Shown: positions 16 through 60,325, counted from the first letter of the stretch. The stretch is 64,000 nucleotides of DNA from Minisyncoccota bacterium (GCA_041651055.1 JBAZJW010000003.1:18089-82088); one strand, 5' to 3'. A program made the numbers and translations. The notes: generated by a model not told the origin, from the sequence alone.

Positions 16-3000
16 GTGGATACGACCTCACCTTCATTGAATTTCACATATCCGACGACGGATAATGGCTCGTTTATCAACGTGAATTACTCGCAGGTGA
101 ATATTTCGATTACTGAGCAGAACCTTGATTCGTTCAAGTTCAACTGGAACGGGACGAATTACTCTATATATGACGACTCTCTTGTTTTGGCGTTGAACTT
201 TAACAATAATTCGGCGATAGGGGAGAATTCAACAAGGTTTGTAGATATCTCTAAGTATGAAAATAATGGTACATGCTCAGGTTCTACATGTCCTACTTAT
301 ACAAGTACAGGAAAGTTCAATGGAGCATATCAGTTTGATGGAATAGAAGATTACATAGATCTTAATCAAACTGATTTGATATGGAATTATAGCACATCAA
401 ATAGTTTATATTTCTGGATTAAAGTAAACTCATTATTTCCTGAGTTTCCAGTAATAGCAAACTTTAAGACAAGTAATAACACTGGAATAGGAATCTTCTT
501 ATATGATGGAGTTGATATCTGTTCAAATGTTGATGATATTAGAATTAGAACTGATGGAGACATAAGTGGTTCATTTGTTGGAACATGGAAGAATGTAGTA
601 ATAACATATAATGGCGTTAATAAGTCAGATACTTCTAATTATAAGATATATGTTGATGGAGTTTCACAAGTTCTTGTGTATGGGATTCCTTGGAATGCAC
701 CTTATATAAATCTTATTGGAGTTAATGAAGTAGGGGCTTCTGATGATTACTTAACTGGTTCTCTTGATGAGATAAGATTATATAGGAGAGAACTAAGTCA
801 AGAAGAGATATTATTTATGTATGAGTCTGAATTAAGTAAATATAATTCTACTGAATACAGATTCTATTCTAACATTACAAATATTTCTGAAGGTTCTTAC
901 CAATACTATGGATGGGCTAATGATAGTGCTGGGAATAGCGGAGTTAGTGAAACAAGAAGTCTTACAGTTGATATGATCTATCCACTAGTGTCGATAATAT
1001 CAGGTCCATTGAATCATAGCAGACAGACAACCAATTATACCATTATTAATTCAAGCATTAGAGAAGACAAGTTAAATAGTTCAGGAATAATACTTGATGG
1101 AGTTGACTACCCAATCTATGATGACTCCCTAGTATTAGCGATGAATTTCAACAATAATTCAGCGATAGGGGAGAATGAGACAAGAGTTGTAGATATATCA
1201 AGATATAGTAATAATTTAACACTTGGAACTAATTCAACAAATATTCCAACATATGTGAATGGAAGATATAATTACGGAATACAATTTGATGGAAGTGATG
1301 ACATAGCACAAACAATAGAACAGATTCCAGATACAAACTCAATTACAATAGAAGGTTGGTTTTGGACTTCAAACCAAAGTTATGTGCTTGGAGCAACAAG
1401 AGCAATATATACTACCCCAAATTGCTATACTAATGATTGTGGTTTTGATTTTAAGATAGGCCCTACTGGTTTTGGATTTTTAGTAGAAACTGATAACCTG
1501 ACAGAAGGATATTGCTATGCTCCTGTCGCTAATGATTCATGGCATCACTTGGTTGCGACTTATAGTTCAGGAAATATAATTTTATATGTTGATGGAGTAC
1601 TAACAAACTCAACAATGCTAGTAGGAAGCACAGGAATTGATTTTGGAAACCGTAAGATATATTTTTCTAATTTAGGGAAATATAAAGGAAAAATTGATGA
1701 AGTACGTATCTGGAACAGAGTTCTTTCAGCAGCAGAAATTGCTTTACATTATCAATCCGAGTTTAAGAAATACAATTCAACAGAGTACAGACTATGGATA
1801 AATATAACAGAACAAAGCAAAGGAAAACACGACTACAGCATCTATGCAAGTGACGACTACCTATACAATGAGACTGAGACAAGGACATACACAATATCAA
1901 CTGCTCCAGTATTAGAGTTCGAATATCCAACAGAAGACAATAGATCAGTAATTGATAGGAATTATACTGAGATAAATATATCAATAAAAGAAGAGAACTT
2001 AGATGTATTGAATGTAAACTGGAATGGAATCCAATATAATGTAACTGAAGGATTACTATTGGGACTTGACTTTGATAACAATTCAAGAATAGGAGAGAAT
2101 GACTCAACATTCGTAGACATATCGCAGTATAACAATAATGGATCATGTTCTGGAACAAGTTGCCCTACTTTTAATGCAAGTGGAAGATTCAACGGAGCAT
2201 ACCAATTTGACGGAACAGATGATTACATAGAATTAGGAAATGATAATAGCTTAGATGTTACAAGTGAATTAACTGTTGAAGGATGGATCAAAGGGAACCC
2301 ACAAGAAGGAAAAGTAATAATAGCAAAATATGATTATGGTTTATCTAAGAGAACTTACTCATTAATGTCTGGAATAGTTTCACAAGATAAATTACTGATT
2401 GTTTTATCTGATGATGGTTCTAATATAGATAAATTGTATGAGAGTAGTATCACAACATTAGATAATACATGGAAGCATATAGCTTTAACATTTAATGGTA
2501 CTGATATATCTATTTATATTAATGGAGTACTTGACAATTCACCAACTAAAACAGTGGATGATCCGATAAATGGACTATATTCTTCAGATGCTAATACAAG
2601 CATCGGAGCATATGTGTTATCTTCCGGAGTTAAAGAAGCATTCTTCAATGGTTCAATAGATAAGCTGAGAGTATATAACAAAACACTAAGCCAAGAAGAT
2701 ATATTGTTTATCTATGACTCAGAATACAGCAAATATAATACAAGTGAATACAGGTTCTATAAGAATATAAGTGGTCTAAGTTATGGAGTGTATATGCATT
2801 CTGCATGGGCGAATGATACTGCTGGAAACTATAACTCAACAGGTACAAGGAAATTAACCTGTGATCTTGACGTTGAACTGATATTCAGTGAATGGTGTTA
2901 TCAGGAATCAGCTACAGTATTCAATCAAAGTGGAATGGATGGAAGTTGTGGTCTTAGATACAATGGATCATATTCTCTTCCAACACTGTATCACCCGATC

Positions 3001-5595
3001 AATATCGTAGATGGTAATGATTCGACAAGCGCTACTGGAAGCTATCTATATGTCAATTACACCAAACCAGATAATTCTGTTAATACAAGTTTATGGAGAG
3101 TTAAAGCAGTGTTTGAGGAATCAGCTGAGATAAGGAATCTATCAATACCTTATCCCTGTTGGAATTACTCTGAAGTTACATTAAATCTAAGAGCTTATGC
3201 GTGTGGATTCGATTGGTATTCATGTTCTTCAGAGGATGATGATTCAGTAGGGTTCTCCTGTTGGAATGGAAGCAGTTGGCAGAACATATACAATCATAGC
3301 AATGTTTCAGTCCAATATTCTATGTATGAGGAAGGGATGTGGTGGAATATAAGCGAGGAAAAGTATTCTTTTTACTCATGGAATGGAAACAAGTGGATAT
3401 ATGATATGGAACCTTTGATAAGGGTTAATTGGAGCTGTCCAAGAGGGAAGAACTACTGCACTCCAAGATATCAGAATAGCAGTCAGGGAGTTATGATGAT
3501 ATATAATAAGAGAAACATGAGTGGAGCATATATGAGACTCAATCAAACATCTGATTATATTACTGTATTCTGCGGAAACAACGCATCATATACTTCTGAT
3601 TATGTTAGAACCATTAATACTGATTGGAAGAAGGTATGCGATCTTGACATATATGAGAATTGTACCTTGTGGTGTTGGGTTAACAACTCACTTAACTCTT
3701 CTTTGTATGGTTATTCTTCTTTTTTGTTTGATATGAACTTCTCTAATTTCCCTACGATATACTTTGAAGAACCAACTGAAGACAATGGCACATATATCTC
3801 TGAGAACCATACCAAGATAGTGTTGTATTCTTCTTTTACTGATGAGGATGCTGCTTCTAATATTTCATTCAATTGGAATGATGAGATTAATATGAGTATA
3901 TTTGATGATTCTCTTGTTCTAAGTTTGAACTTCGACAATAACTCATATATCGGGGAGAATTCTATTACTGCTAAAGACACATCAAAATATAATGCAACAA
4001 TAACACATTCACTTCAATCTATAGAAGGTAAATTTGGAAAAGCATTAAACTATACTGGAAGTTCGGGTACTGGAATAGCTGGTTCTCCTTATGACATATA
4101 TGATACTCCACAATTCACTTTGGAAGCATGGATATACCAGTTAAACAGGACTGGAACAGTTGCAAATAAAGGGATTGTTGCAGGTAGAAGTTTTCGATGG
4201 CCATACTGTATGTATATATCAAATACAGGATATATTGTTAGTGGATTAACTTGGTCAGATGATAATACAGAGTATACTACAGTCAGCAATAATATAATTC
4301 CTCTCAATACATGGACACATGTTGCATTATCTTATAATGGTAGCCACGTAATTACCTGGATAAACGGAGTATTTGATAAATCTACTGCAAAAAACAAAGA
4401 CTTGAAACTTGGAACAAATAACAATTTCAAGATAGGTTATTTGGATACTACGAACTACTTTAACGGAACAATAGATGAAGTTAGATTATATAATAGAAGT
4501 CTTTCAAATGAAGAGATAAGATTACACTACTTAATTAACTTAAAGTATAAACTGCCAAATGAATATGAGATAACCATGAATATAACAAACCTAACAGATG
4601 GAGAATACCACTACCAAGGATGGTCCCAGAATAGCGAGGGACATGGGGCTGAAACAGAAAGAAGAACACTATATGTCAATAAAGAAGCTCCAGTGTTGAC
4701 CTTCCAAGACCCTACCCCCATAGATGAGGAATCTTTAACCAATAATTGGGTAGATATCAATGTAAGTATATCGGATGTTGCTAGGAATACTTTTGGAGTA
4801 ACATGGGGATCAACCAACTGCTCAATAGACGATACCTATCTTAAATTAGCTTTAAACTTCAACAATAACTCAGAGATAGGAGACAACTCAACATATTCAG
4901 TGGATATATCAAGATATGAGAACAATGGAGTAATATCTAATGGAAGCTATGTTGAAGGAAAGTTTGGACTTGGATTAAACTTCAATACTTCATCAAGAAT
5001 AACAATACAAGATATGAGTAACATATCCAAGAGCTATACAATAATGCATTGGCTTAAACCTAACCCAACATCATACAATTATCCTCCAATATTATACAAG
5101 AAATCAGGTAATAATGGATTCCTTGAATACTTTAGAAAGGCTACAAATGAGGTAAGACTAGTCATGTATAACTCATCTGGAACCAATTTTGAATGCCAAC
5201 AAACAAGCGACTACTGGATCAACACATGGAAACAAGTAGTGTGGACATATTCCAATTATAGCGGAGAGACAAAGTTATACCTTGACGGAACACTATCAAA
5301 GACATGCACAAACCAAAAAGACATAATAACGAACAGTGCGGACCTATTGATCGGATCAGATGGAACATACGGATACAATGGAACAATAGACGAGTTAAGG
5401 ATATATAGTAGAGTGTTGTCAGCAGAGGAAATAGCAATACAATATAAATCAGAATACACAAGATATAATGACAGTACTTATAGATTCATAACTAATATGA
5501 GCGCTGGAACAGGAACACAGAAGTTCTCAGCGTGGGCCAAAGACAACATGAACAACTATGGGACAACAGAGATTAGAACAGTATATATCAATTGA
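16..5595 (+). CDS. giant multi-LamG (concanavalin A-like jelly-roll) repeat surface/fibre adhesin; 5' end truncated by window edge
   Basis: 1859-codon ORF open to nt 1 (no upstream stop). Five ~200-aa units begin with DDSLVL.LNF.NNS.IGENST..VDIS.Y.NNG. Each ends in the LamG hallmark [IL]DE[VIL]R[ILV][YW][NR][RK].LS.EEI..[HMI]Y (LDEIRLYRRELSQEEI, IDEVRIWNRVLSAAEI, IDKLRVYNKTLSQEDI, IDEVRLYNRSLSNEEI, IDELRIYSRVLSAEEI). Very high density of N-x-S/T sequons. Cys/Trp-rich central insert (aa ~950-1240). Confidence 0.6.
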   Translation: MDTTSPSLNFTYPTTDNGSFINVNYSQVNISITEQNLDSFKFNWNGTNYSIYDDSLVLALNFNNNSAIGENSTRFVDISKYENNGTCSGSTCPTYTSTGKFNGAYQFDGIEDYIDLNQTDLIWNYSTSNSLYFWIKVNSLFPEFPVIANFKTSNNTGIGIFLYDGVDICSNVDDIRIRTDGDISGSFVGTWKNVVITYNGVNKSDTSNYKIYVDGVSQVLVYGIPWNAPYINLIGVNEVGASDDYLTGSLDEIRLYRRELSQEEILFMYESELSKYNSTEYRFYSNITNISEGSYQYYGWANDSAGNSGVSETRSLTVDMIYPLVSIISGPLNHSRQTTNYTIINSSIREDKLNSSGIILDGVDYPIYDDSLVLAMNFNNNSAIGENETRVVDISRYSNNLTLGTNSTNIPTYVNGRYNYGIQFDGSDDIAQTIEQIPDTNSITIEGWFWTSNQSYVLGATRAIYTTPNCYTNDCGFDFKIGPTGFGFLVETDNLTEGYCYAPVANDSWHHLVATYSSGNIILYVDGVLTNSTMLVGSTGIDFGNRKIYFSNLGKYKGKIDEVRIWNRVLSAAEIALHYQSEFKKYNSTEYRLWINITEQSKGKHDYSIYASDDYLYNETETRTYTISTAPVLEFEYPTEDNRSVIDRNYTEINISIKEENLDVLNVNWNGIQYNVTEGLLLGLDFDNNSRIGENDSTFVDISQYNNNGSCSGTSCPTFNASGRFNGAYQFDGTDDYIELGNDNSLDVTSELTVEGWIKGNPQEGKVIIAKYDYGLSKRTYSLMSGIVSQDKLLIVLSDDGSNIDKLYESSITTLDNTWKHIALTFNGTDISIYINGVLDNSPTKTVDDPINGLYSSDANTSIGAYVLSSGVKEAFFNGSIDKLRVYNKTLSQEDILFIYDSEYSKYNTSEYRFYKNISGLSYGVYMHSAWANDTAGNYNSTGTRKLTCDLDVELIFSEWCYQESATVFNQSGMDGSCGLRYNGSYSLPTLYHPINIVDGNDSTSATGSYLYVNYTKPDNSVNTSLWRVKAVFEESAEIRNLSIPYPCWNYSEVTLNLRAYACGFDWYSCSSEDDDSVGFSCWNGSSWQNIYNHSNVSVQYSMYEEGMWWNISEEKYSFYSWNGNKWIYDMEPLIRVNWSCPRGKNYCTPRYQNSSQGVMMIYNKRNMSGAYMRLNQTSDYITVFCGNNASYTSDYVRTINTDWKKVCDLDIYENCTLWCWVNNSLNSSLYGYSSFLFDMNFSNFPTIYFEEPTEDNGTYISENHTKIVLYSSFTDEDAASNISFNWNDEINMSIFDDSLVLSLNFDNNSYIGENSITAKDTSKYNATITHSLQSIEGKFGKALNYTGSSGTGIAGSPYDIYDTPQFTLEAWIYQLNRTGTVANKGIVAGRSFRWPYCMYISNTGYIVSGLTWSDDNTEYTTVSNNIIPLNTWTHVALSYNGSHVITWINGVFDKSTAKNKDLKLGTNNNFKIGYLDTTNYFNGTIDEVRLYNRSLSNEEIRLHYLINLKYKLPNEYEITMNITNLTDGEYHYQGWSQNSEGHGAETERRTLYVNKEAPVLTFQDPTPIDEESLTNNWVDINVSISDVARNTFGVTWGSTNCSIDDTYLKLALNFNNNSEIGDNSTYSVDISRYENNGVISNGSYVEGKFGLGLNFNTSSRITIQDMSNISKSYTIMHWLKPNPTSYNYPPILYKKSGNNGFLEYFRKATNEVRLVMYNSSGTNFECQQTSDYWINTWKQVVWTYSNYSGETKLYLDGTLSKTCTNQKDIITNSADLLIGSDGTYGYNGTIDELRIYSRVLSAEEIAIQYKSEYTRYNDSTYRFITNMSAGTGTQKFSAWAKDNMNNYGTTEIRTVYIN

Positions 5596-20058: not shown

Positions 20059-21819
20059 TTACTCTTTAATTAGATTGAAGAAGGTTTGGGGGAGTAGGGA
20101 TAAGTGGGATATTATCTTGAAGTTCCTGCGTTGAGGACCGAGGATGTCGTTGTAGTCCTTGATAACTCTCTCTCTCATTGAAGCGTCTGATTGAATGTAA
20201 GCAATTCCATAGATTGAGATGCCTGAGCGGTGAGCTATCTTGGATTGCTCAATGGCTTCCTGCTTGTCTGATGCTATGCCGTCAGAAATGAAGAGGATGC
20301 GTTTTATGTTATTGGCTTTGCATCTTGTAATGGCAGTCCCAAGGGCTCGTCCAAGAGGGGTGAGTTTGTCAGCGTCAAAGCCTCCAAGCAAGGCACGGGT
20401 TTGGTCTGTGAATCGTTCTGTTCGTTCCTTTACCATGCGGATCTGATCCTTGTGTCCAAAGTATAGCATCTCGTATTTAATCTTGGTTGTGGTGAGGGCT
20501 TCACATATTATTGCTAGTGACATTATGTATTGGTTCTCGTATTGGGAGACGCTTCCTGAGTTGTCCACTAATATGTATAAGTCGGTTTTGTTTGAGATGC
20601 GTTCTTCATTGTTGAAGTATTTGTCGGAGCAGGAGATGTAGGCTTCAGGGTCGAAGTCTTCTCCTTCAGTGTCTAAGTGCTCATCCCAGCCAATGGTCCA
20701 CTTCTTGAGACGCTGCTTCATGTCAAGGGTTTCGCGTTGGACTGCTCCCTTCAATGTGTTGTATCTGCCGATGTCTGAGGAATTGGAGCGGATTATTGGT
20801 GTCTTGGCTATCTTCATCTGTTGTGTGTATTGGTCGCATAGTGATTTGAATTCTACCTTGAGTTCTTCTGTTGGGGAGGTTTCATCGGAGTCTATTTGTT
20901 GCAGGATCTTTTCGACTGCTTCAAGGCTTCCTCTTATTGATGCTTCGGATGTTTGTATCTTTTGTCCAGGAGTTGTGTTAGTATCAAGTTCTCCAGGTGC
21001 TTGGATATAGACCATGTTCAAGCCTTGGGAGTTTGGGTCGAGTTCTTGAGAGGTTGATCCATTCTCTTTCCTTTCATTGTATTGGTCTCTGAAATCGGGT
21101 TCATCTGGGAATAGTTTGGAGAACTTGAATGTGGACTCTATTGCTTGGTCTGTGGTCTCGATGTCTTGGAATTCAGGTATCAATGCTTTTAGTTGTGTTA
21201 GGAGTTCAGGTGAGAGTTTTTCATACATTGGGTTGGTGTCTCTTTCAGTGTCTTTGGATATGGAGCGGAGAGAGTCGAGGATGTAGAGTCCTGCGATTCT
21301 AACAGTTGAGAGAGAGTGCTTTAATCTTGTGTATTCCTTTGCGTTCTTCTTCAAGTAGTATTGGTCTCTGAAGCGTTGTTCTCTGTAGTAGCCTGTGTAA
21401 GTGCGAAGACTGATTTTTTCTATGCGGTAATCTTCTAAGGCATTGAATAATTGGAAGATGAATTTGTCTTTGGCGTGTTCTTTTGGCAGTATGTCAGGGT
21501 TTATGTGGGGTGTGTGCCAGATGTGGAGTGATTCATGGAAAGTCTCAAAGCGGAAGAGTCTCCATATATTGAAGTCTTGGGTTAGATCGCCTGAAAACAT
21601 TGGGAGTTGAGGAATGAGAATTGTGCCTCTGCTGTCTTTAGTAATTAGTGTGGAGAATCCTTTGTTTGTGAGTGAGGTGATTATATGAGTATTCTTGCAT
21701 TTGGACCATACACGAGCCAAATGATTCAAGTGATCTACTCTTACATCATTGGTATAAGTGGTTTGAATAGATTGCTGTTGAGACATATTATCAATGTCGT
21801 CTGGAGTTGGTTGTTTCAT
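20059..21819 (-). CDS. von Willebrand factor A (vWA) domain protein, CoxE/NorD-like
   Basis: C-terminal MIDAS: LYILVDNSGSV (DxSxS)...TPLGRAL...ILFISDG; long N-terminal extension. Confidence 0.6.
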   Translation of the reverse strand: MKQPTPDDIDNMSQQQSIQTTYTNDVRVDHLNHLARVWSKCKNTHIITSLTNKGFSTLITKDSRGTILIPQLPMFSGDLTQDFNIWRLFRFETFHESLHIWHTPHINPDILPKEHAKDKFIFQLFNALEDYRIEKISLRTYTGYYREQRFRDQYYLKKNAKEYTRLKHSLSTVRIAGLYILDSLRSISKDTERDTNPMYEKLSPELLTQLKALIPEFQDIETTDQAIESTFKFSKLFPDEPDFRDQYNERKENGSTSQELDPNSQGLNMVYIQAPGELDTNTTPGQKIQTSEASIRGSLEAVEKILQQIDSDETSPTEELKVEFKSLCDQYTQQMKIAKTPIIRSNSSDIGRYNTLKGAVQRETLDMKQRLKKWTIGWDEHLDTEGEDFDPEAYISCSDKYFNNEERISNKTDLYILVDNSGSVSQYENQYIMSLAIICEALTTTKIKYEMLYFGHKDQIRMVKERTERFTDQTRALLGGFDADKLTPLGRALGTAITRCKANNIKRILFISDGIASDKQEAIEQSKIAHRSGISIYGIAYIQSDASMRERVIKDYNDILGPQRRNFKIISHLSLLPQTFFNLIKE

Positions 21820-21961
21820 AGTCTCACTCTTATTCTTTGTTTAACTGGTTTGCATTTATGCTCTTTCATCTCTCTTGGAGTTGGATTTAATAGTAATAAC
21901 CCACATGACTTACATTTCCAGTTTACTCCAATTGTTAGTTGTTTCATCTTGCTCCTAAGTG

Positions 21962-22216
21962 TTATAACTCTAAAAGTAACTTTGCATCATTATTCCATGT
22001 TCCATCTTTGTTCTCACGCCATGACATGTCTATAAACAAATTCTTCAAGTCCAGAATGTAAGCAGATTTGTAGTGATGATTTGAGAGTTCTATGGCGATG
22101 GCTTCTGCTATTCCAGCAGTTTCAGGTTGTCCTCTTCTTTGATATATGTCTCTTTTATCTTCCATTGATTTGATATAATATATCTGGGCTTCTTTGTATT
22201 CATCCATTGTAATCAC
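21962..22216 (-). CDS. hypothetical protein
   Basis: between AAA+ and vWA genes. Confidence 0.3.
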   Translation of the reverse strand: MITMDEYKEAQIYYIKSMEDKRDIYQRRGQPETAGIAEAIAIELSNHHYKSAYILDLKNLFIDMSWRENKDGTWNNDAKLLLEL

Positions 22217-22437
22217 TCCAATTTGATCTTACCTTGTTTGTATTGATGATATAATCTGACAACCAATCCTTTGTCTCTTATAGCGATTACTTGATTGTAG
22301 GAGCGATCTATGAATTTGGAGATTAATTCTAAGACAGTGAACCATGTGAGCATTATTCCAAGTAGGGATATACAGAGACAATCCAGGAAACCAAGGATTA
22401 TCAGTGTATAGTAAATTGATTCGAGTATTGGGATCAT
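22213..22437 (-). CDS. small membrane protein
   Basis: two TM helices. Confidence 0.3.
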   Translation of the reverse strand: MIPILESIYYTLIILGFLDCLCISLLGIMLTWFTVLELISKFIDRSYNQVIAIRDKGLVVRLYHQYKQGKIKLE

Positions 22438-22679
22438 TCTAATTTCCTCTTTACATATTCAGCTCTTGCTCTTTGTTCCAGTTCTTCTGCTTTGGAGAGA
22501 TCGAAGTTGAAGTATTCGAAGGCGGCTAGTATTTGAACTAGGGATTGAACTACTGCTTCTTCCACTTCTTTTTGTGTTGTCAGTTCATGTGAGCAGCATC
22601 CGCAGCCAGTTGATCTGGCACTGAATCCTTCTTCATCTATTTTGTTATCTTTATTAGACCAGAAACTCATTAGTCCCAT
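22434..22679 (-). CDS. hypothetical protein
   Basis: CGCCSHE. Confidence 0.3.
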   Translation of the reverse strand: MGLMSFWSNKDNKIDEEGFSARSTGCGCCSHELTTQKEVEEAVVQSLVQILAAFEYFNFDLSKAEELEQRARAEYVKRKLE

Positions 22680-22866
22680 TTTAGTTTTTATTTTTTATTC
22701 TCTTTGGACAATGATCTATATCGCAGAGACATAATACACCTGGGCCTTCATGTCTTGCATAGCATATTGCAGCTTCCATTGTCTCATTTTTGTTGTGTAT
22801 GATTTCTCTTGAAAGACAATCCTCATTTGAGGTGCTTATTATCCAAGTTAGTCCCATTTTGCTTGT

Positions 22867-23886
22867 TTAGATTGTAATGTCGTCCGCTTTAACTTTTTGC
22901 TCTTCATAGCAGCCAAGGGAATGTGCAAGCGTTTTAAGGTTATCCATGTGGAAGGTTCCCCATTGTCTCATAGCATTAATCAATGTAAGATCAATGGTTT
23001 CGGTCAATGAGTAGCCGCTGTTTAGTAGGTGGGCTGCTGTGATTGATTCTCTTGTGGTGGGGCGGTATGGGTATTCGTCTGTGCTTCTAATGTTCTCGAA
23101 TAGCTTCAATACCTTAAGCAAGTCATCGCGGTGTTGTGATTCTAGTGTCAGCTTTCTTTCGACTATTTTGAGTTCGGTGAAGGCTGGGGGATAGTTGTAG
23201 ACTAGGCGTGCTGAGAATCGTGAGAGTATTTGTTGGGGTAGTTCCTTTGCTCCAGGGCAGTCAAGGGGATTGATTGAGGCGGTGAAAAACCAGGAGGGTT
23301 TAGCGTGTATTGTTAGTCCTTCATAGTTGAGTTCTCGTCTGTCGTCTAGGCATTCATTTAAGCGGATTAGGACATCTGGCTCGGATTGATTGATTTCATC
23401 TAGCATTAAGATTGAGCCTTCTTCCATTGAGAGGGGGAGTGGTCCTTTTTTCCAGTTGATGTTTCCGTCCTGTAAATCCAAGCGTCCAAGTAAATGCTGT
23501 TCTCTGCAGCGTAGTGAGAGGTTTAGTGAGTGTATGTTTTGGTTGTATTTTTCTGCCATTAGTAGAATAGAGATCGTCTTGCCACAACCAGGGGGGCCAA
23601 TGAGTAGGGGGTTGATTCCTTTTTCATACAAGTGGCATAGTTTTCTGAAATTGCCTTCCCAGTCGTAGAATTTGCCTCCGCTTAGGTCTTTGAGTATCCA
23701 GATTGCTCCAGAACGTATTATGATATCCTTCTGTTTTAGTGAGTCTAGTGCAGGGTAGATGTTTTGTATGGTGAGCGGTTCTGGGAGATTTAGGGGTTTG
23801 CTCCATTCTATGAGTTCTGTGGGTGAGCCTTTCTTGTGTTGGTCCAGTATTGATACCAGTATTCCTTCTATTTGTGCTTTATCCAT
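22867..23886 (-). CDS. MoxR-like (AAA_5) AAA+ ATPase
   Basis: Walker A LLIGPPGCGKT, Walker B ILMLDEINQ, sensor ..FFTASINP; partner of the downstream vWA protein. Confidence 0.6.
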   Translation of the reverse strand: MDKAQIEGILVSILDQHKKGSPTELIEWSKPLNLPEPLTIQNIYPALDSLKQKDIIIRSGAIWILKDLSGGKFYDWEGNFRKLCHLYEKGINPLLIGPPGCGKTISILLMAEKYNQNIHSLNLSLRCREQHLLGRLDLQDGNINWKKGPLPLSMEEGSILMLDEINQSEPDVLIRLNECLDDRRELNYEGLTIHAKPSWFFTASINPLDCPGAKELPQQILSRFSARLVYNYPPAFTELKIVERKLTLESQHRDDLLKVLKLFENIRSTDEYPYRPTTRESITAAHLLNSGYSLTETIDLTLINAMRQWGTFHMDNLKTLAHSLGCYEEQKVKADDITI

Positions 23887-35918: not shown

Positions 35919-36419
35919 AATATTAGATTTAGAAACTAAAGTATAAATAGATAAGCAGTATTTATAGTTGAAAGAGTATGATAATATTAGAGGAATCCTG
36001 CAAAGCCTCGTGTCGGTTATAACATTGGTAGGTTATAAAATTGGGTCACTGGCTAGTTCCTTGTGTTCATCTAGTCCAGTGATCCTCATATTAGAATCAA
36101 GCATATATAAAATCAATCATATCTGTTTGTTTTTTCAATAAGGGATTCAAGCCTTAGAAGTTTGAAATCAATAGTCCTCTGGATATCTTTGAATACGTTG
36201 CGATCTGGATTGATAGCGCATAATATCGTGGTGCTGATTCACGAAATGCACGAACTAGGGATAAAGCCAGATTTTAAAAATATATCATTATAATGTACTA
36301 TTTTTTATAAAAACATATTGATTTATTAACCCTTGTGTGCTATAATATATTTGTTTGATACCCGCTATCGTTACTGTAACAGTGATGATAGGCTTAGATT
36401 ACCGTTACATCTGTATATA

Positions 36420-36752
36420 ATGGCTTCTAGTGACAAAGTTGCTATATTTATTGATTCGGGCTATTTTAACAAAGCCTTAGAGGAATTTGCCGAAGAGGTA
36501 AATGGTAGGAGGAAGTTACCTAGGATAGATTTTGGTAAAATCGGATCTGTCTTAGCAGAAATAGTAAACGCTGATTTATTTAGGGTATATTTTTATGATT
36601 GCCGCCCATTTCAAAGCAGCCCGCCAACACCCGAAGAAAGCACTAAATTTGCTTTAAATGACCGATTTCTCAAAGCACTAACTCGTATTCCTCGTTTTGT
36701 TGTTCGTGAAGGAAGACTTAATCGTTATACCGTAGTATGCAAGAAATGTAAT
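36420..36752 (+). pseudogene. N-terminal half of a LabA/NYN-domain gene, interrupted at ~36751
   Basis: KVAIFIDSGYF (NYN kvavfiDgeN), FRVYFYDC, RFVVREGRL; homology stops where GC-rich DNA begins. Confidence 0.55.
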
Positions 36753-37036
36753 AGGGCAGGGTGCCGGTTGTCTTCGGGTATAATATTTACTGCATGCTGG
36801 GCCGTAAGACCGGGAAGTTGCTTGCCCATAATGGGTTGTATGTTAAGAGTTTAAGCGTCGGATGGGCCGAATTAAAGAGGGATTTCTCCGGGTACGCAGT
36901 CAACGGGACTGCCTTGAATGCATCGCTGGATACGGGTAAGTCTTCCGTACAATAGAAGTTTTTGTGGGTATTCGTCCTCAGGCAGTTATAGTCGAGGGCA
37001 AAAGTTGTCCACAGACATGCCCTTAAGGGCAACTAG
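36751..37036 (+). ncRNA. RNase P RNA-like fragment lacking the 5' ~70 nt (P1-P4 5' strand)
   Basis: AUAGGGCAGGGUGCC (15/15 identical to the E. coli M1 RNA P5/P5.1 region), then GGCCGUAAGACCGGG, CUGCCUUGAAUGCAUCGCUGG, and UGUCCACAGACAUGCCCUUAAGG resembling the M1 RNA P4 3' strand UGUCCACGACAGAACCCGGCUUA, in the canonical order; followed by an oligo-T at 37039-37045. Confidence 0.45.
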
Positions 37037-37781
37037 CCTTTTTTTAAAAATCAGATTACGTGCCCTCGAATAGATTCGCGGCCGATAGCAGTCTAAATGC
37101 ATTTAAGGCATTTGCCTTTTTGCACAATTTATGGCCACGATTATGTCCAAATCAGCGTTTTTAAGCTCTTTTGTATCATTATCCGGTTTGCCTTAGGCTG
37201 TGGGTTCTTTCCGCCTTGCAGCAGCCGAGGTCATATTATAGTGCAGGAGATAACTTTCCTGCGCCCGTCGAGCGCATGCCTGTCAGGCGGAAAATTTGTG
37301 CCTAGAGGCACATGCCCCTTGAGGGCAAAGTCCCTTTATCTCCCTGCACTTGTTTCAAGGGCCAAAATCTTAGGGGTATTCTGGTCCTCGACTATAGTTC
37401 TTCAGGTCTTTTGCCTGCCTATTTTACAACAGTTTTCCGGCATTTAGGGATTGAATAATCGTGGAGGGATAACTTTTCCCTCCTTAAGGCATTCCCTGCG
37501 AGCATCCCGAGTTTTTCGTGAAAGACCTTTGTTCTCCCGCGCTGGTTTCCAGTAGGCGGACTTGCCTGGAAGGCGTTCCTCTTTAAAGGCGCGAAAATTT
37601 AATCCTTGACTAAGTGTTTTCCCTGTCTGCTCGGGGTCTGCTTCGAACACTTTTTTTCTATGCCGATGAGCCGCATATTTTCCAGGGAACCTACAGAAAA
37701 AAATTTGTTAGACGCAACATATCTTTTATTATAAATATATTCCAGTAAACATGATATAAGGACATAGTCTTATATAGTAAC

Positions 37782-38228
37782 GTGACATTACTTTATTTTG
37801 CCTATGGCGCGAATATGAACCACAAGCACATGAAAGACGCGTGCTCTCAGAGCAGGTTCTTGAAGAGGGCTTTTCTGGAGGATCATAAGATAATATACGA
37901 CGGGTACTCGGATTACATGAGAAGAAGAGCAAGGGCCAATGTCATCAGCTCTGAGGGCAGTGTCGTGTGGGGCGGCCTGTATGAGATAAGCGAGACGGAC
38001 CTTGTATCGCTGGACGTATCGGAGTACGCGCCTAACTCATTCGACCGGAAGACAACCGTCGTCAAAGACGAGGACGGGAAGACATATGAGGTCATCGTCT
38101 ACCGCAGGGAAAAAAGGGAGTTGTGCGCGCCTTCTACGGAGTACAGGCAGACCATAATACAGGGAGCAAAAGACTGCAACCTCCCCCAGGGATATATAAG
38201 GGGGATAAGTTATAGAGTAAGCGGATGA
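37782..38228 (+). CDS. gamma-glutamyl cyclotransferase-like (AIG2/GGCT family) protein
   Basis: N-terminal LYFAYGANMN matches the YFAYGSNM family signature; upstream TATA-like TTTATTATAAATATATT at ~37725. Confidence 0.55.
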   Translation: MTLLYFAYGANMNHKHMKDACSQSRFLKRAFLEDHKIIYDGYSDYMRRRARANVISSEGSVVWGGLYEISETDLVSLDVSEYAPNSFDRKTTVVKDEDGKTYEVIVYRREKRELCAPSTEYRQTIIQGAKDCNLPQGYIRGISYRVSG

Positions 38229-38242
38229 TTATCAAAATCTGA

Positions 38243-38680
38243 TTACATGTATTTAGACTGGCTTTTAGTCTCCCGGGCAGTTGGCTCTTCCTCTGCAGGC
38301 ACCGGTTCTTCTACCTGGACATCATCGGCCGGTTCGTCTACAGGGTCGTCTTCCAGGTATTCATCCAGCCGGTAGAGCCAGCAGCATTTGCCGCATTCAA
38401 GTTCCAGTTCTCCCGCGCAGTTGCCGTTTGTCCCTTCCTGCATCACTATTTCCCCGTCTCTCACATATGCTGTTATCTTGTTCTGGCATTCGGGGTTCTC
38501 ACAGGTGAAAGACACTTTTTCCGCCTCGCACACAAGTTCCGGTTTATAGACCATGTTCTCATCCTCCGATAGATCTTCGTTTAGTATCGCTCTTTCTGCG
38601 CTCGTGTAGCTTCCATATCTCAAGACAAGATATAGAAGGTACGCAACGCCAACCAGGAAAAATAAGCTTCCCAAGTCCAT
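38243..38680 (-). CDS. hypothetical membrane-anchored acidic protein with Cys pairs
   Basis: N-terminal TM helix, CEAE...CENPEC...CAGELELECGKCC. Confidence 0.4.
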   Translation of the reverse strand: MDLGSLFFLVGVAYLLYLVLRYGSYTSAERAILNEDLSEDENMVYKPELVCEAEKVSFTCENPECQNKITAYVRDGEIVMQEGTNGNCAGELELECGKCCWLYRLDEYLEDDPVDEPADDVQVEEPVPAEEEPTARETKSQSKYM

Positions 38681-38684
38681 TAAA

Positions 38685-40061
38685 TCATTCCTTCTTCTTT
38701 GTTTCGTGCTTTATCTCGTGCCTGCGCGTTATGGGCTCTACTCCGACAGCTTCGAATATCTTCGGCAGAGCCGCTGTTCCCTGCATCACGGTATTCAGGA
38801 TGGATCCGCCAAGTCCCATGTCTGACGTATCCCCTGTCTGGACTATCGTTATCTTGTCTCCGATGTTCTTCAGGGGCTCTGCTATTCTCTCGGCTATCAA
38901 AGGAAGCGTCTCTATCTTCATTATCTCAAGGCCGCTCTGGTTCAATTCCTTGTATGCTTCCGCCTTCTTCTGGACTCCTTCCGCTTCGGCTAGAAGCTTT
39001 TGTTTCTGTCCCTCCGCTTCGGCCAGTAATTTTGCCTTTATTGCTTCCGCTTCCCCGATCCCTTCCAGCTTCTTCTTCTCGGACTCTCCCGCCGCAATAG
39101 CGATCGTCTTGACTTTCTCGGCCTCTCCTTCAAGCTGCTGTATTTCCTTGTTTCGTTCGGATATCTCTACTTGTTTCTGCTTCTGTATTAGTTCGATCTT
39201 CATCTGCTCTTCTTTCAGTTTCTGTGTTTGTATGGCAGTCTCTATATCCTTTGCCTTGTCGGCCATGGCCTGCTGCGTGAATGTCTCCTGGTTGTATAGC
39301 GCCATCTTTATCTGTTTTTCTTTTTCGTATTCTGCTATCTTTGTCTGCGCTATGTTCTCCTGCTCGCTTGCTTCCTGGTTCGCCTTGGCGGTCGCCTTCC
39401 GGGACTCGCTCTTCGCGTTGGCTTCGGCTATCTCCGCTGCTTTTATCTTTTCGGCAAGCTCCTTTGCGTAGAGGGACTCTATGTACCCTCTGCCGGTCTC
39501 TTTCTTTGTTGACGATGAATCGCTGATGTCCTTTATCGTGAAGGATACTATCGAGAGGCCCATCTTCTCCAGGTCGTCTTTTGCGTTCTCAAGGACCCTT
39601 TTGTTGAAGCTTTCCCGGTCCTGTATCAATTCCTCGACTGTCATGTTGGCGCATATCGCCCTTATGTGGCCCTCCATTGTCTCTTCTATCTTCTGCATTA
39701 TCCTTTCGGTCTCAAAGCCCAGGAATGATTTTGATACGTTGGCGTATCCTTCTTCGGTGTCCTGCAACTGTAATTGTGCGACTGCTTCCACGTCGACGGG
39801 AACGATAAGCTGAGTCTGCACGTTTTCCTTTACTATTGTGACGGTCATAAGCTGTTTTGTTATGGACCACGCTTCTTCCAGGACAGGGAATATGAGCGTT
39901 GCTCCTCCCGACACGAATCTTGTTCCTTTCCTTCCGGAGATCACCATAAGCTTTGACGGGGGTACTTTGATATAGTTCCTGCTCATAACATACGCTCCCC
40001 CCATGACCGCTATTGCTCCCCCGCCGACTATTATCGGCAGCACGAATCCGTCGATGTTCAT
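38685..40061 (-). CDS. flotillin / SPFH (band 7) domain protein
   Basis: N-terminal TM segment, SPFH core (VISGRKGTRFVSGGATLIFPVLE...TVEELIQDRESFNKRV...GLSIVSFTIKDISD) and long Ala/Glu-rich coiled coil (AEAEGQKQKLLAEAEG). Confidence 0.7.
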   Translation of the reverse strand: MNIDGFVLPIIVGGGAIAVMGGAYVMSRNYIKVPPSKLMVISGRKGTRFVSGGATLIFPVLEEAWSITKQLMTVTIVKENVQTQLIVPVDVEAVAQLQLQDTEEGYANVSKSFLGFETERIMQKIEETMEGHIRAICANMTVEELIQDRESFNKRVLENAKDDLEKMGLSIVSFTIKDISDSSSTKKETGRGYIESLYAKELAEKIKAAEIAEANAKSESRKATAKANQEASEQENIAQTKIAEYEKEKQIKMALYNQETFTQQAMADKAKDIETAIQTQKLKEEQMKIELIQKQKQVEISERNKEIQQLEGEAEKVKTIAIAAGESEKKKLEGIGEAEAIKAKLLAEAEGQKQKLLAEAEGVQKKAEAYKELNQSGLEIMKIETLPLIAERIAEPLKNIGDKITIVQTGDTSDMGLGGSILNTVMQGTAALPKIFEAVGVEPITRRHEIKHETKKKE

Positions 40062-40639
40062 TTTTCAGCCTCTCTTGATGCTTTTTTTACTTTCAACATG
40101 TCGCCGCATAGTCCGGCGACTATTACATTCGTTCCCTTGGGCAGGCTTTCGTCCGAGACCGCCAGTAAAGACTTATGGCTCCCGTCTACGAAAAGAACTT
40201 CCCCCTTGTCGCCCGCGCCCTTTATCTCCACTGTCACTACGCCCTCTTTTCCTATGAAATCCCTCAGCTTGCGTATAGAGCTTGGCGAATTGGAGAACAC
40301 CTTGGACATTAGATACGTTGATGAGACGGTTATCGCTAAAGAGATAAAAAGCGACGCAGGAACCAGGACAAAAGGACTCATTTCAGGATACGCGAGCAGG
40401 AGATATACCCCGGCCCCTCCGAAAGTCGTGCAGAACGCGCCCATCGCGAATGTGCCAAAGCCGTGGAAAGACACTCCGTCGAATGCATCCCCCAGGAGGG
40501 ATATGCCATCCAACGCGTTGCCCACGCCTTCCAATACCCCTTCCAGGGCGTCGCCTAATATGTCGGCAAAGAAGCTGACAACTGTGATCAATAGCCCCAT
40601 CAAGAATATTATTCCGAAAACTAGTAGAATATCTATCAT
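40058..40639 (-). CDS. NfeD-like membrane protein (YuaF/YqiJ type), operon partner of flotillin
   Basis: multi-TM N-terminus plus C-terminal OB-like beta domain GKEGVVTVEIKGAGDKGEVLFVDGSHKSLLAVSDESLPKGTNVIVAGL; 4-nt overlap with flotillin gene. Confidence 0.6.
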   Translation of the reverse strand: MIDILLVFGIIFLMGLLITVVSFFADILGDALEGVLEGVGNALDGISLLGDAFDGVSFHGFGTFAMGAFCTTFGGAGVYLLLAYPEMSPFVLVPASLFISLAITVSSTYLMSKVFSNSPSSIRKLRDFIGKEGVVTVEIKGAGDKGEVLFVDGSHKSLLAVSDESLPKGTNVIVAGLCGDMLKVKKASREAEK

Positions 40640-40796
40640 TTTTATTGAATAATATTTAGATTATGTTATATTTATATAAATATTCTGTATAAAACTTTGA
40701 TTCTTTCCTGAATTTGTAGATTTGTGGGAAGTGAGCGAATGTAGTGCCTAACTTTCCGGACCAAAAAAAATATTTAAATAATCAGAAAACACATAC

Positions 40797-41309
40797 ATGT
40801 ATGTGATGAAAGCCAGCAAACATCGCATGCTTTCTTTTATGATGGTCGCCGCGTCTACCGCTGCCGGCGCGAACTCCGTAATGGGCCCTCTGACAGGCAT
40901 TTGGGGAGTGGCAATGATATTCTTATTCCTCCCGGTATGGCTTCTTGAGGCCGTAATCATTTACTTCGCAGCAAGGAAGATATGTTCCTACAGTATAAGC
41001 CTCAAGCGCGCATTTATCACGTCTTTTGCAGCCAACACCGCCTCGACAATAGGCGGCCTTATGGCAATGCAAATTTGCTACTTTATTACCTTCCTACTGT
41101 TCCATAACTATACCCTGAGCATATTTTACGAGATCGTCCCCGTCTTTGCCCTGGGTTTTGTGATAACGGTCATCATAGAAACGGTCGTGGTGCATATCTC
41201 AGTCAAGGATAAAGGCAGAGGCTGCAAGCCTTTTTATATTTCCATGCTGATGAATCTGGCGTCATATGCCCTGCTTGCAGCGCTTGCAGTCATCAGATAC
41301 AGTCGTTGA
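40797..41309 (+). CDS. integral membrane protein (4-5 TM helices)
   Basis: hydrophobic segments throughout; GC-rich codon usage like neighbours. Confidence 0.4.
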   Translation: MYVMKASKHRMLSFMMVAASTAAGANSVMGPLTGIWGVAMIFLFLPVWLLEAVIIYFAARKICSYSISLKRAFITSFAANTASTIGGLMAMQICYFITFLLFHNYTLSIFYEIVPVFALGFVITVIIETVVVHISVKDKGRGCKPFYISMLMNLASYALLAALAVIRYSR

Positions 41310-41634
41310 CGTTCTTAAGCCACATTAGCAGCGTCGACTGAACCGTTCCGGATGCCTCGGCGCTTATCCTCTCCGCGTCGTATCCGAACGTTATTAGCAG
41401 GTTCTCGAGAGCCCGGACCAATAGTTCGTAGTACTTGTCCGGATCGTATTCCCCCCGTATCTGCTTCGGCGTGTAGCGCCGCTCGGGCTTCTTCGCGCAG
41501 GCATCTGTTATCACGTACTCGACCGATTCCCCCGGCCGGGTCTTCAGACCGTAGCGTTCCAGCTTTTCCATCACGACCTTTTGCGCCGCCGCGCTCTTGT
41601 ATTCATTCCGCTCCCTTGTCACGCTCTTGAACAT
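41293..41634 (-). pseudogene. C-terminal (thumb-tip) fragment of a family-B DNA polymerase gene, truncated at the block boundary
   Basis: RERNEYKSAAAQKVVMEKLERYG...EYDPDKYYELLVRALENLLITFGYDAERI parallels archaeal PolB C-termini (..[24 protein letters not shown]...[29 protein letters not shown]); in-frame stop 12 codons upstream of the ATG in low-GC DNA. Confidence 0.5.
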
Positions 41635-41913
41635 ACAATTGACTACAAGCAGAAAGGCGTAGATATACTACTATCTATGGATTTAGTAAAGTTGGTTTCT
41701 AAGGAAGAAATAAACAAAGCAGTACTAATAACTGGTGACAGTGACTTTGTGCCTGCGGTTCGAATGGCAAAGGATGATACGATCCAAATTTATTTGATAC
41801 ATGGTACTAGAATCCATAATGGAAAAACTCTTCCACTAGCTCATGATGAACTTTATTCGTTATGTGACGAACGCATACCTATAACAAAGGAGCTACTTAA
41901 AAGGCTGACCTAA
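41634..41913 (+). pseudogene. C-terminal half of the LabA/NYN-domain gene
   Basis: KQKGVDILLSMDL...AVLITGDSDFVPAVRMAKDDTIQIYLI matches NYN gk.dvDialavDa...vvLvSgDsDFaplv...G..V.v. Confidence 0.55.
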
Positions 41914-57792: not shown

Positions 57793-58180
57793 CACAATGC
57801 TCACCAACATAAGAACCCAAATTAAAACAAACCCAGCAGAACCCAATCTCATCTTTGATCCTATAACACTAATGACTCTACACTTATTATCAATAAACAA
57901 AACCAAATATTGCATCCATCAATCACAATGCTAACAAACATAGACCTACAAATCAAAACAAGCCTCACAACCTCAAACCACATCATTGATCCAATAACAT
58001 CAAAGACCCCACACCATCTCCAAATAGATAAACCCAAATACAATTACCACCCACAATGCTAACCAATATCGACTTACAGATCAAGACCGGACTAACAACC
58101 TCAGACTTCATAATAAAAGGAGCCACAGACTTCAAATACTGGGCCGAAACCCTATACGACTACACAATCAAACCATACCA
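57793..58180 (+). repeat. three diverged tandem ~130-bp copies of the terL 5' end (CACAATGCT.AC.AA.AT...)
   Basis: unit starts at 57793, 57924, 58052 (ATGs at 57797, 57928, 58056; not in frame with one another). Copies 1-2 encode MLTNIRTQIKTNPAEP.. and MLTNIDLQIKTSLTTS.. versus the real MLTNIDLQIKTGLTTS.. Confidence 0.65.
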
Positions 58181-59600
58181 CATCGAATGGGCCAACAACC
58201 TAACACAACAAACACGCTCCTCAACCATCGCAGCAAGAGGACTAGGCAAATCACTCATACTAGGAACCCTAATGCCCATCTGGCTAAGCTTCTACGACTA
58301 CACACCACAGACAACAAACCTAAAAGGAATAGTAATAGCAGCCCAAAACCTAAGCCAAAGCACTAAACTAATGATGAACATCCGAAACCACATCAACAAA
58401 ACAGAACTAACACAACTACTCATACCAAAAACAGGAGACTACACCTGGACCAAAAAAGAAATAAACACCACAACCGACTGGAAAATAAACGTACTACCAT
58501 ACAGCGACAACGCAAGAGGACCACACGTCCCATACCTCCTAATGGAAGAAGCAGGTCTATTCACCGACCTAGAAATATACACAGACGTATTCCTACCAAT
58601 GATCCAAAGAGCCAACGGCAACGCAATGTTATTAGGGACCCCAAAAACAGCATACGACCTGCTAGCAAGAAGCCAAATACCCGGAAGCGGATACCAGATA
58701 AGCAAATACCCCCTAATCAAAAACGGAGAATGCATCCTACCAGAAATATTCCCCCCAGAACGAATACAACAAATACGAAAAGACATCGGAGAACTAAGCT
58801 TCGCAAGAGAATACCTACTCGAAATAGTAGGAGAAGGACGAGCAATAAAAACACAACACATAATAGACAGCCTAGACCCAACAGAAACCTTCACCACACT
58901 AGGAACCGAAACAGGAGAATACTACATAGGAGCAGACCTAGCACTATCCCCCACAGGAGACTACACAGTACTAACAGTCATAGAACGCTACAATGGACGC
59001 TACCACATCCGCAAAATAGAAGAATACCGCGGCATGAGCTTCGACAACCAAATAAACACCATAGCCACCCTATACAAACAATACAACCCCGTCACCCTAC
59101 TAATAGACGAAAGCAACTTCGGAGGAATAGTAACCCAAAAACTACAAACACAATACAACATACCAGCCCAAAGCATCAAATTCCTCCCAACCACCCGCAA
59201 CACCATGCTCATAAGACTAATAAACACCTTCACATCAAACAAAATAACCATACCACGAAACCCCAACTGCCCCACCACCCTCACACTAACAGACCACCTA
59301 CTAGACCAAATAAGCAGCCTACACAGCGACAAAACACGCAGCGGCCAAGACACCTACAAAGCATCAACAAAACACGATGATTCTTTAATGTCCCTAGCAC
59401 TAGCCCTACACGCAGCAGGAGACACAGACAACTACCAAGAAACAGCCATACTAACAGCCAAACCACCAACAAACCAAACACAACAAAACAAGATAATACA
59501 AGACAACTACTATGAAACAATACAAAAAATGAGACAAAAACCAATAAAAGAAACCAAAGAATACGGATCAGCCTTCAACAAATGGCTACCACACAACTAA
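58056..59600 (+). CDS. terL: terminase large subunit
   Basis: Walker A AARGLGKSLILG, Walker B-like VPYLLMEEAG, C-terminal RNase H-like nuclease Asp motifs YYIGADLALSPTGDYTVLTVIE and LLIDESNFGG; strongly A/C-rich codon usage. Confidence 0.65.
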   Translation: MLTNIDLQIKTGLTTSDFIIKGATDFKYWAETLYDYTIKPYHIEWANNLTQQTRSSTIAARGLGKSLILGTLMPIWLSFYDYTPQTTNLKGIVIAAQNLSQSTKLMMNIRNHINKTELTQLLIPKTGDYTWTKKEINTTTDWKINVLPYSDNARGPHVPYLLMEEAGLFTDLEIYTDVFLPMIQRANGNAMLLGTPKTAYDLLARSQIPGSGYQISKYPLIKNGECILPEIFPPERIQQIRKDIGELSFAREYLLEIVGEGRAIKTQHIIDSLDPTETFTTLGTETGEYYIGADLALSPTGDYTVLTVIERYNGRYHIRKIEEYRGMSFDNQINTIATLYKQYNPVTLLIDESNFGGIVTQKLQTQYNIPAQSIKFLPTTRNTMLIRLINTFTSNKITIPRNPNCPTTLTLTDHLLDQISSLHSDKTRSGQDTYKASTKHDDSLMSLALALHAAGDTDNYQETAILTAKPPTNQTQQNKIIQDNYYETIQKMRQKPIKETKEYGSAFNKWLPHN

Positions 59601-60325
59601 AACACCAAACTAATCAAGCCACACAATCAACTGACACAATCAACTGACACAATCAACTGACACAACTAACAGAGACAACTAACAGAGACAAACAAACCAA
59701 AAAACCAACCAAGACAACACAAGTAAACAAAGACAACCAAACACACAACATACCAATATGAATAAGCAAAGACAACTAACACAACTAACAGAAACAACAC
59801 AACCAAACCACGCAACTAAGCAGACAAAGATAACTAAACCAAACAACAAACTAACACAACCAAAACAAGACAACTAAAACAAGACAACTAAACCAAGACA
59901 ATTAGATCATACAATAAAACCATACAACCAAACCAAGACAGATAAACTAAAAAAACTAACTAACTCAACTGTTAAGAATCAAAACAACTAACAGAGATAA
60001 CATAACCAAATCACACAATTAATCAAAATAACTAAACAACACAATTAGATCATACAACTAAACCATACAACTAACTAACACAACAAACCAAATAAAACAA
60101 ATCAAAAACAACCAAACACAAACCAATCAGAAAAATTTAATATAAATACTACAATACATATACAACTAATATATACCATACAAAACTAATTAATAAAAAA
60201 CCAAATAAACAAGCACTAAAACAAACAGATATCAAAACAAATAAATACAAAAACAAATAAAAACCAAATTAATAAAAAACAAGACTAAAAAACAACAATA
60301 ACATACAATCAATAAATATTACAAG
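59601..60325. repeat. ~720-bp almost pure A/C low-complexity spacer with short tandem repeats
   Basis: CACAATCAACTGA x3, CAACTAACAGAGACA x2, many CAA/ACA/CAAAC units; G and T nearly absent on + strand; no plausible ORF (the - strand 64-aa ORF is a composition artefact). Confidence 0.6.

Follow-up and report, generated by a model that had tools for sequence, protein, structure and literature searches.

How does the end of an archaeal-type DNA polymerase gene come to lie in the genome of a tailed virus? This question is raised by a 113-codon open reading frame (ORF; positions 41293..41634, minus strand) in a 64,000-nucleotide (nt) stretch of metagenomic DNA, which is filed under Minisyncoccota bacterium (GCA_041651055.1, JBAZJW010000003.1:18089-82088) and is referred to here as the window, with positions counted from its first letter. 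An earlier reading of this DNA, made from the sequence alone, had taken the ORF for an orphan C-terminal fragment of a family-B DNA polymerase (PolB) at a boundary in base composition, and had argued that the polymerase gene was cut rather than merely left unannotated. Both propositions hold. In our view the ORF is a non-functional polB remnant that marks a breakpoint of the capture of archaeal-type DNA by the virus through illegitimate recombination, and we put the probability of this reading at about 0.85. The exact 113-residue protein is found on ENA contig ERZ27247363:k141_3129407 (84,899 bp; position 1 of the window is position 829 of this record), whose proteins are filed by NCBI under a ‘Candidatus Paceibacterota’ metagenome-assembled genome (MFA5132838.1). 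The contig is that of an uncultured tailed virus and was probably mis-binned into the bacterial genome, since its genes include those for a terminase, tail proteins and a portal of the Mu-like type.

A phmmer search of the PDB matched the ORF to 33 archaeal PolB chains (best E 1.7e-6), with residues 2-107 of the query aligned to residues 663-770 of the 773-residue Thermococcus PolB. A word-indexed homologue search gave only the ORF itself, whereas HMMER, run exhaustively on a set of 1.84 billion representative proteins, returned 215 matches at E<=1e-3 (best E 1.5e-16), among which full-length proteins (715-830 residues) were always aligned at their extreme C-terminus. The NCBIfam model NF004418 (‘type B DNA-directed DNA polymerase’) was matched at positions 616-715 of 717 (E 1.6e-8), and BLASTP showed 75% identity to residues 620-722 of an intact 724-residue PolB encoded on metagenomic contig L002 (E 2e-49). 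The top matches to the ORF are PolB and not unrelated proteins. The Pfam family PF00136 was undetected in the ORF, as fits a sequence that retains no more than the tail of this domain.

The PolB-derived part of the ORF comprises codons 3-113 (41628..41296, followed by the stop codon at 41293-41295) and covers the end of the thumb domain. It resembles the replicative polymerases of the Thermococcales (PDB 1TGO, 1WNS and 3A2F) in the C-terminal thumb (663-770), including the terminal QxxLxxWL, but the identity is modest (bit scores 29-31) and nothing is left of the N-terminal, exonuclease, palm and fingers domains. The alignment is confined to PolB C-terminal residues, so that the 3'-5' exonuclease domain (Exo I-III) is not represented, and polymerase motifs A (DxxSLYPS), B (KxxxNSxYG) and C (YxDTDS), which lie at residues ~345-490 of the L002 protein, upstream of the break, are likewise absent. 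Judged by these features, the fragment is a gene remnant and not a working polymerase.

The upstream limit of the remnant is sharply defined. PolB homology starts at codon 3 (Lys, 41626-41628) and DNA similarity to L002 starts at 41628, whereas codons 1-2 (ATG TTC, 41634..41629) are recipient DNA, from a NYN-domain gene read in antisense. The guanine-plus-cytosine (GC) content changes from 0.57-0.60 to 0.375 across this junction, and the nearest in-frame upstream stop, TAG at 41668-41670, lies 12 codons before the ATG in DNA of 37% GC. The sequence-only reading had placed the start of homology within a few codons of the GC transition and an in-frame stop 12 codons upstream in low-GC DNA, and it is correct on both counts. 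It had further stated that no other DNA polymerase is visible in the window. When two full-length PolBs were compared by tblastn with the 64-kb window, no second PolB piece was detected (next best E 0.46), and Pfam and PHROG scans of ~30 of the larger window ORFs revealed no polymerase, in agreement with that statement.

These searches bear on the alternative that the gene is a naturally split or intein-containing polB, the remainder of which is encoded at another place in the virus. Some methanogens do have split PolB genes. A very divergent polymerase might still be encoded among the unannotated ORFs or in the last ~12 kb of the 84.9-kb record, which was unseen. Apart from the tblastn result, the gene table of the 8.5 kb beyond the window (to record position 72,559) lists no polymerase and no PolB domain, and no intein (Hint) signature was found. 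The break lies within the thumb, ~105 residues short of the C-terminus, at the very nucleotide where antisense NYN DNA takes over. A split or intein-bearing gene is therefore barely credible, and we regard the polymerase as truncated at what proves to be the right-hand junction of a foreign insert.

The nature of this junction becomes clear from the gene that is interrupted. The N-terminal half of a NYN/LabA gene (codons 1-111; 36420..36752, plus strand; GC 0.375) is found 4.9 kb to the left, where the ORF as called (36333-36854) continues out of frame from this half into insert DNA, and the C-terminal half (94 codons and a stop; 41629..41913, plus strand; GC 0.365) begins at the polB break and matches Pfam NYN at positions 71-124 (E 9e-9). 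When 36420-36752 is joined in silico to 41629-41913, an uninterrupted ORF of 205 residues is restored. This is 58% identical, end to end, to an intact 201-residue LabA/DUF88 protein (P0272; E 2e-86), with no gap at the join (CKKCNEHTIDYKQKGV in the restored ORF versus CPKCGDIRSAFEQKGV in P0272), and more than 100 other intact NYN homologues of ~180-200 residues cover 96-98% of the joined sequence. Pfam NYN (PF01936) is matched on the restored ORF as a single stretch at positions 1-124 (42.4 bits; gathering score 24.2); the domain is complete only after excision and each half is incomplete in the sequence as it stands. P0272 itself is encoded on an archaeal-looking cellular contig (L007) together with PGK, AsnC, KaiC-like ATPases and regulators of the FilR1/HVO_A0261 type.

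Because excision restores this gene without a gap, we interpret the intervening 4,876 bp (36753..41628; boundaries +/- ~3 nt) as a foreign block inserted between the adjacent NYN codons Asn-111 and Glu-112. Its GC content is 0.482, compared with 0.379 for the rest of the window, and the step occurs exactly at the junctions. Target sequence is neither detectably lost nor duplicated, microhomology is lacking, and a repeat search identified no terminal repeats, flanking direct or inverted repeats, or target duplication.

A sharp GC step of 10 points in a short-read metagenome assembly (the contig bears a k141 MEGAHIT-style name), on a contig binned as ‘Candidatus Paceibacterota’ in spite of its virus genes, could also indicate an assembly chimera, in which a higher-GC block from another organism was stitched into the viral contig. 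In that case the assembler must have strayed from the viral sequence and come back to it precisely at the neighbouring codon, given that excision restores a perfect 205-residue NYN ORF, and neither junction carries a repeat that might mislead an assembly at k=141. The requirement for an exact return to the next codon without any guiding repeat rules out a chimera in practice, and we consider it extremely unlikely. The junctions appear to be real, because a junction-spanning ORF of 173 residues (P0273) and the 113-residue ORF, which abuts the other junction, are recorded from several assemblies, comprising ENA, Logan, JGI and NCBI versions of the contig (84,899 and 84,939 bp).

The origin of the insert is indicated by three metagenomic contigs that encode relatives of its flotillin: Logan contig L002 (8.2 kb, 51% GC), whose flotillin is 94-95% identical, and JGI contigs L095 and L096 (48% GC; 0.484 for L095), which have related copies. 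On L002 the order is PolB (724 residues, full length), a 592-residue gene, NfeD, flotillin, a 152-residue gene and a gamma-glutamyl cyclotransferase-like (GGACT) gene. On L095 it is PolB (incomplete, as the contig stops within it; 85% identical to that of L002), genes of 374, 92 and 49 residues, NfeD, flotillin, a 145-residue gene, GGACT, a sce7726-like gene, a 75-residue gene, rhodanese and a PAS/response-regulator/TrmB protein. The genes common to the block, L002 and L095 occur in the same order and orientation, and DNA identity from NfeD through GGACT is 82% to L095 (40686..37735, with both end fragments also matching) and 80.6% to L002. The presence of rhodanese and a PAS/TrmB regulator suggests a cellular or megaplasmid context for L095 and L002.

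At each end of the insert lies a gene that has lost its 5' part and is directed towards the interior. The left edge is occupied by the C-terminal ~65 codons of a rhodanese gene (36758..36955, plus strand), in which residues 107-159 of the 178-residue L095 rhodanese match window positions 36758-36916 (75% identity, E 3e-23, tblastn), and which is out of frame with the N-terminal half of NYN. A full PolB (L002) and a full rhodanese (L095) are located where the window has fragments, and the homologous DNA of these contigs runs past both ends of the insert, through ~460-620 upstream PolB codons on one side and the first 106 rhodanese codons on the other. The ends are thus arbitrary break points rather than element termini.

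This continuity also weakens the idea that the block is itself a mobile element with NYN genes as its target (a transposon, a homing cassette or something akin to IS200/IS605), in which the PolB piece would belong to the structure of the element. Such an element would suit the exact placement between two codons and the undiminished target, and elements of the IS200/IS605 type likewise have neither terminal inverted repeats nor target duplications. The ends of the block nevertheless fall inside donor genes whose L095/L002 homology continues beyond them, terminal repeats of any kind are missing, and among the insert ORFs scanned with Pfam and NCBIfam there is no recombinase domain, be it of a transposase, integrase, TnpB or homing endonuclease. 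Rfam, run at a permissive threshold over 35.5-42.5 kb, gave no match. We therefore think it highly unlikely that the block is a mobile element.

According to the capture scenario that we favour, a tailed virus of ~38% GC would have taken up a 4,876-bp arbitrary segment of an archaeal-type replicon of ~48% GC resembling L095/L002, in which the gene order would have been polB, one or more variable genes, nfeD, flotillin, the 145-residue gene, GGACT and, further on, rhodanese. The captured piece would start in the middle of rhodanese and end ~105 codons before the polB stop, and would have been joined between Asn-111 and Glu-112 of NYN either by end-joining at a break or through a double template switch during replication. 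The intact, unduplicated target and the lack of microhomology point to recombination of the illegitimate kind. On this view the PolB piece at the right-hand end is best taken as a passenger scar.

L002 and L095 were also weighed as the immediate and recent source of the insert and are rejected, as their divergence from it is too high and the genes in the polB-nfeD slot differ.

Several features suggest that the remnant is not expressed as a functional protein. Its ATG (41634-41632) is the reverse complement of a NYN His codon, CAT (41632-41634), and was thus supplied by chance from the recipient flank. No Shine-Dalgarno-like motif is apparent by eye in the 26 nt before this ATG, and a consensus scan detected no promoter-like site within ~350 nt upstream. 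Between the remnant and its L002/L095 counterparts the proportion of nonsynonymous differences (pN) is 0.17-0.18 and that of synonymous differences (pS) 0.74-0.78, giving a pN/pS of 0.22-0.24; this ratio is reported in place of dN/dS, as synonymous differences are saturated. A neutral simulation of all 92 differences in 309 nucleotides left the frame open in only 1.7% of cases. The low pN/pS and the simulation indicate that most of the divergence pre-dates the truncation and accumulated under purifying selection; they do not show selection on the fragment itself. The reading frames of the two NYN halves and of the two terminal fragments have stayed open and the GC contrast has not been evened out, which would fit a recent event. 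The central cargo genes, by contrast, are clearly conserved (dN/dS 0.03 for flotillin and 0.06 for GGACT).

It is conceivable that the ORF has instead been co-opted as a small protein, in which a thumb tip and a PCNA-interacting protein (PIP) box would bind PCNA, the sliding clamp of the host, and might act in the infected cell as a decoy or an inhibitor. The C-terminus QSTLLMWL (41296-41325, minus strand) is PIP-like and aligns with QVGLGAWL of the Thermococcus PolB, in a region that forms the PCNA-binding motif of PolB (PMC11791011, section 3.3.3, numbering from PDB 3a2f). It fits the pattern Qxx(L)xx(aromatic)(hydrophobic) better than the corresponding sequence of L002 (QMKLLYWS) or that of L095. 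The ATG is located exactly at the junction, all 113 codons have remained open although the nucleotide sequence differs by 30% from its homologues, and the pN/pS value might be taken as a sign of constraint. A low pN/pS is, however, expected if divergence mostly pre-dates truncation, and the rhodanese fragment, for which no function is proposed, behaves alike, with an open frame and a pN/pS of 0.31 versus L095. In addition to the fortuitous antisense start and the lack of a ribosome-binding motif or promoter-like site upstream, the 3' end of the remnant overlaps a convergent ORF, and a second, independent stand-alone fragment in a related virus could not be shown. We give co-option only a slim chance. 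If it were true, a ~13-kDa thumb-tip/PIP-box protein translated from the junction ATG would bind host PCNA and interfere with or hijack replication or repair, and would constitute a new viral clamp-targeting factor born of a recombination accident.

Some observations weigh against a non-functional remnant left by capture. The open 113-codon frame and the well-preserved PIP-like C-terminus are compatible with some retained function. The exact donor was not found: pS between the insert and L002/L095 is ~0.5 in the central genes and 0.74-0.79 at the ends, and both contigs carry different genes from the insert in the polB-nfeD slot. The junctions are known from assembled contigs and not at the level of reads. 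Nor was a virus relative with an empty site and an intact NYN gene found. Four IMG/VR queries (the restored NYN protein, the flotillin, and flank proteins of 375 and 150 residues) identified no relatives, and exact 24-mers of the reconstructed empty site were absent from IMG/VR and from JGI metagenomes; the occupied right junction is likewise absent from JGI metagenomes, so that the empty-site negative there carries no information. A search of GTDB representative genomes with a flotillin profile gave a best match of 35% identity and no donor genome.

The remnant probably derives from a gene of the PolB2 (translesion) type and not from a replicative polymerase. PolB2 proteins are described as ‘inactivated’ or translesion B-family polymerases (Rogozin et al. 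2008, PMC2527604; Timinskas et al. 2025, PMC11791011), in which the Tyr and first Asp of YGDTD are replaced, the distal Asp is kept and Exo I is lost (PMC2527604; PMC11791011, section 3.1), and they are associated in an operon with iRadA and PPB2 (PMC11791011). The intact homologues on L002 (737-2911) and L095 (3-1733) share a degenerate motif B and the hallmark motif C, HGIVDS, compared with YIDTDG in Pyrococcus abyssi PolB; motif A is intact in the L002 protein. No Pfam exonuclease domain is detected in the L002 PolB, and among the intact homologues the exonuclease-domain signal is either lacking or weak. The best NCBIfam models for the L002 PolB are ‘type B DNA-directed DNA polymerase’ families of 665-717 residues, which are matched with scores under their cut-offs, and its nearest annotated relatives are haloarchaeal megaplasmid PolBs with 30-35% identity. 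The remnant covers only the last ~111 residues and the hallmark motifs lie outside it; as the diagnostic region is missing, its assignment to PolB2 is made through the 75%-identical C-terminus of the L002 protein. Neither iRadA nor PPB2 was identified beside the L002 PolB. Just upstream of it, before the contig ends, there is only an ORF of 144 residues that matches nothing in Pfam or NCBIfam; this might encode the PPB2 partner.

A linkage of PolB, NfeD and flotillin also recurs on more distant contigs. On L003-L006 (16-74 kb, 51% GC) a family-B polymerase is encoded a few kilobases upstream of an NfeD-flotillin pair (e.g. L003 5269-11383), and the same protein is recorded on a 113-kb contig too. 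Here the polymerase is canonical (766 residues, with exonuclease and polymerase domains) and the flotillin is 43-45% identical to that of the window. Small unannotated ORFs abound on these contigs, which have the look of viral or other mobile DNA.

The captured genes include a flotillin-NfeD pair. The flotillin gene (SPFH/Band 7; 38685..40061, minus strand) matches Pfam Band_7 (E 6e-20, 72 bits) and Flot (E 2e-10, 41 bits), both exceeding the cut-offs, and its product is 93-95% identical to the L002/L095 homologues, with a dN/dS of 0.03 versus L002. The co-oriented gene adjoining it (40058..40639, minus strand) overlaps the flotillin start by 4 nt and encodes an NfeD-like membrane protein with 81% identity to the L002/L095 homologues. 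Its Pfam NfeD match is weak (E 4.7e-4; 20.7 bits, under the gathering score of 29.1), and the assignment is made because this match is accompanied by the JGI name of the homologues, ‘membrane protein implicated in regulation of membrane protease activity’, and by a stronger NfeD call on L003. The two genes have the composition of an NfeD-flotillin pair, namely a protein with Band_7/SPFH and flotillin domains and an adjoining co-oriented gene of the NfeD family. Bacterial NfeD-flotillin operons, such as floA/floT with nfeD in Bacillus and Staphylococcus (PMC4928834, PMC11222466), are similar in this co-orientation; the pair described here differs in being encoded by a virus and in having its closest relatives on uncultured archaeal-type contigs.

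Between the polB remnant and nfeD lies an ORF encoding a hydrophobic protein of 170 residues (40797..41309, plus strand), convergent with the remnant and overlapping it by 17 nt, with no homologue in L002-L006 and no Pfam or NCBIfam match. It fills a slot that is occupied by a 592-residue gene in L002, by genes of 374, 92 and 49 residues in L095 and by a 608-residue gene in a third contig. Since each contig has different genes at this position, the slot is, by sequence comparison, a variable hotspot in the donor lineage.

On the other side of the flotillin gene, an ORF of 145 residues (38243..38680, minus strand) encodes a protein with an N-terminal hydrophobic segment and Cys clusters that is conserved in L002 and L095 (67-69% identity; pN/pS 0.32 versus L095) and has no Pfam or NCBIfam match. 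The GGACT/AIG2 gene (37782..38228, plus strand; Pfam PF13772 and PF06094) shows 89% amino-acid identity to its L095 homologue (pN/pS 0.09; dN/dS 0.06). The ~0.8 kb between this gene and the rhodanese fragment (36956..37781) contains no convincing gene. L095 has a 182-residue sce7726-family gene and a 75-residue gene at this position; tblastn with these two proteins gave nothing in the window, Rfam gave nothing at 36956-37781, and similarity to L095 is limited to a 45-bp DNA match (37172-37215 to L095 7271-7315). Two similar hairpin motifs occur in this interval, ACATGCCCTTAAGGGCAA (~37016-37033, followed by a T-run) and ACATGCCCCTTGAGGGCAAAG (~37310-37330). Promoter- and terminator-like sites are no commoner than in shuffled sequence.

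The event is of a well-known kind, unusually cleanly documented, and does not represent a new system. As in the ‘moron’-type acquisitions that contribute to the mosaicism of tailed viruses, a compositionally distinct block of cellular type has arbitrary borders and truncated genes and is accompanied by neither a recombinase nor repeats. It differs in that codon-level resolution is possible for the two break points, for the gene that was disrupted and for intact loci of the donor type, and in that the insert lies inside a gene rather than between genes and has no identified transcription signals of its own. The locus thus provides an unusually clean record of a virus acquiring cellular-type DNA. 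In annotation the fragment belongs with pseudogenes or gene remnants, and it should not be counted as a viral DNA polymerase. The donor-type locus, with its PolB2-like gene, NfeD-flotillin pair, rhodanese and TrmB/PAS regulator at ~48% GC, offers a lead to the host of the virus or to a co-resident replicon. With dN/dS values of 0.03-0.15, the membrane-scaffold pair NfeD-flotillin is kept by the virus under purifying selection. Selection may have favoured retention of this part of the insert, and an auxiliary function of the pair may merit study.

The viral contig has a GC content of ~38%. The large terminase subunit is encoded at 58056-59600, as identified by the Pfam/PHROG scans and the gene table; its best identity to any isolate phage is only ~24%, host assignment via relatives failed, and no close cultured or IMG/VR relative of the virus was found. 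The same virus is present in run SRR8542065 (L094), at 100% identity over 12.1 kb. In addition to the portal and tail proteins, the virus encodes a Cas4-like nuclease, RecU and YopX, and dozens of small window ORFs have no family match. A tail-associated protein of 1,859 residues with five concanavalin/Laminin_G_3 domains is located at 16-5595 (plus strand). Genes for a VWA-domain protein (20059-21819, minus strand) and a MoxR-type AAA+ ATPase (22867-23886, minus strand) form a pair (region 20059-23886) as seen in some auxiliary or defence-related modules of phages. A 13-nt tandem repeat, ACACAATCAACTG (~59621-59659), lies between the terminase and portal genes and is present in three copies in the window and two in the ENA record (L093); as the copy counts differ, the window may come from a different assembly version, probably that of 84,939 bp, or the repeat number may be polymorphic.

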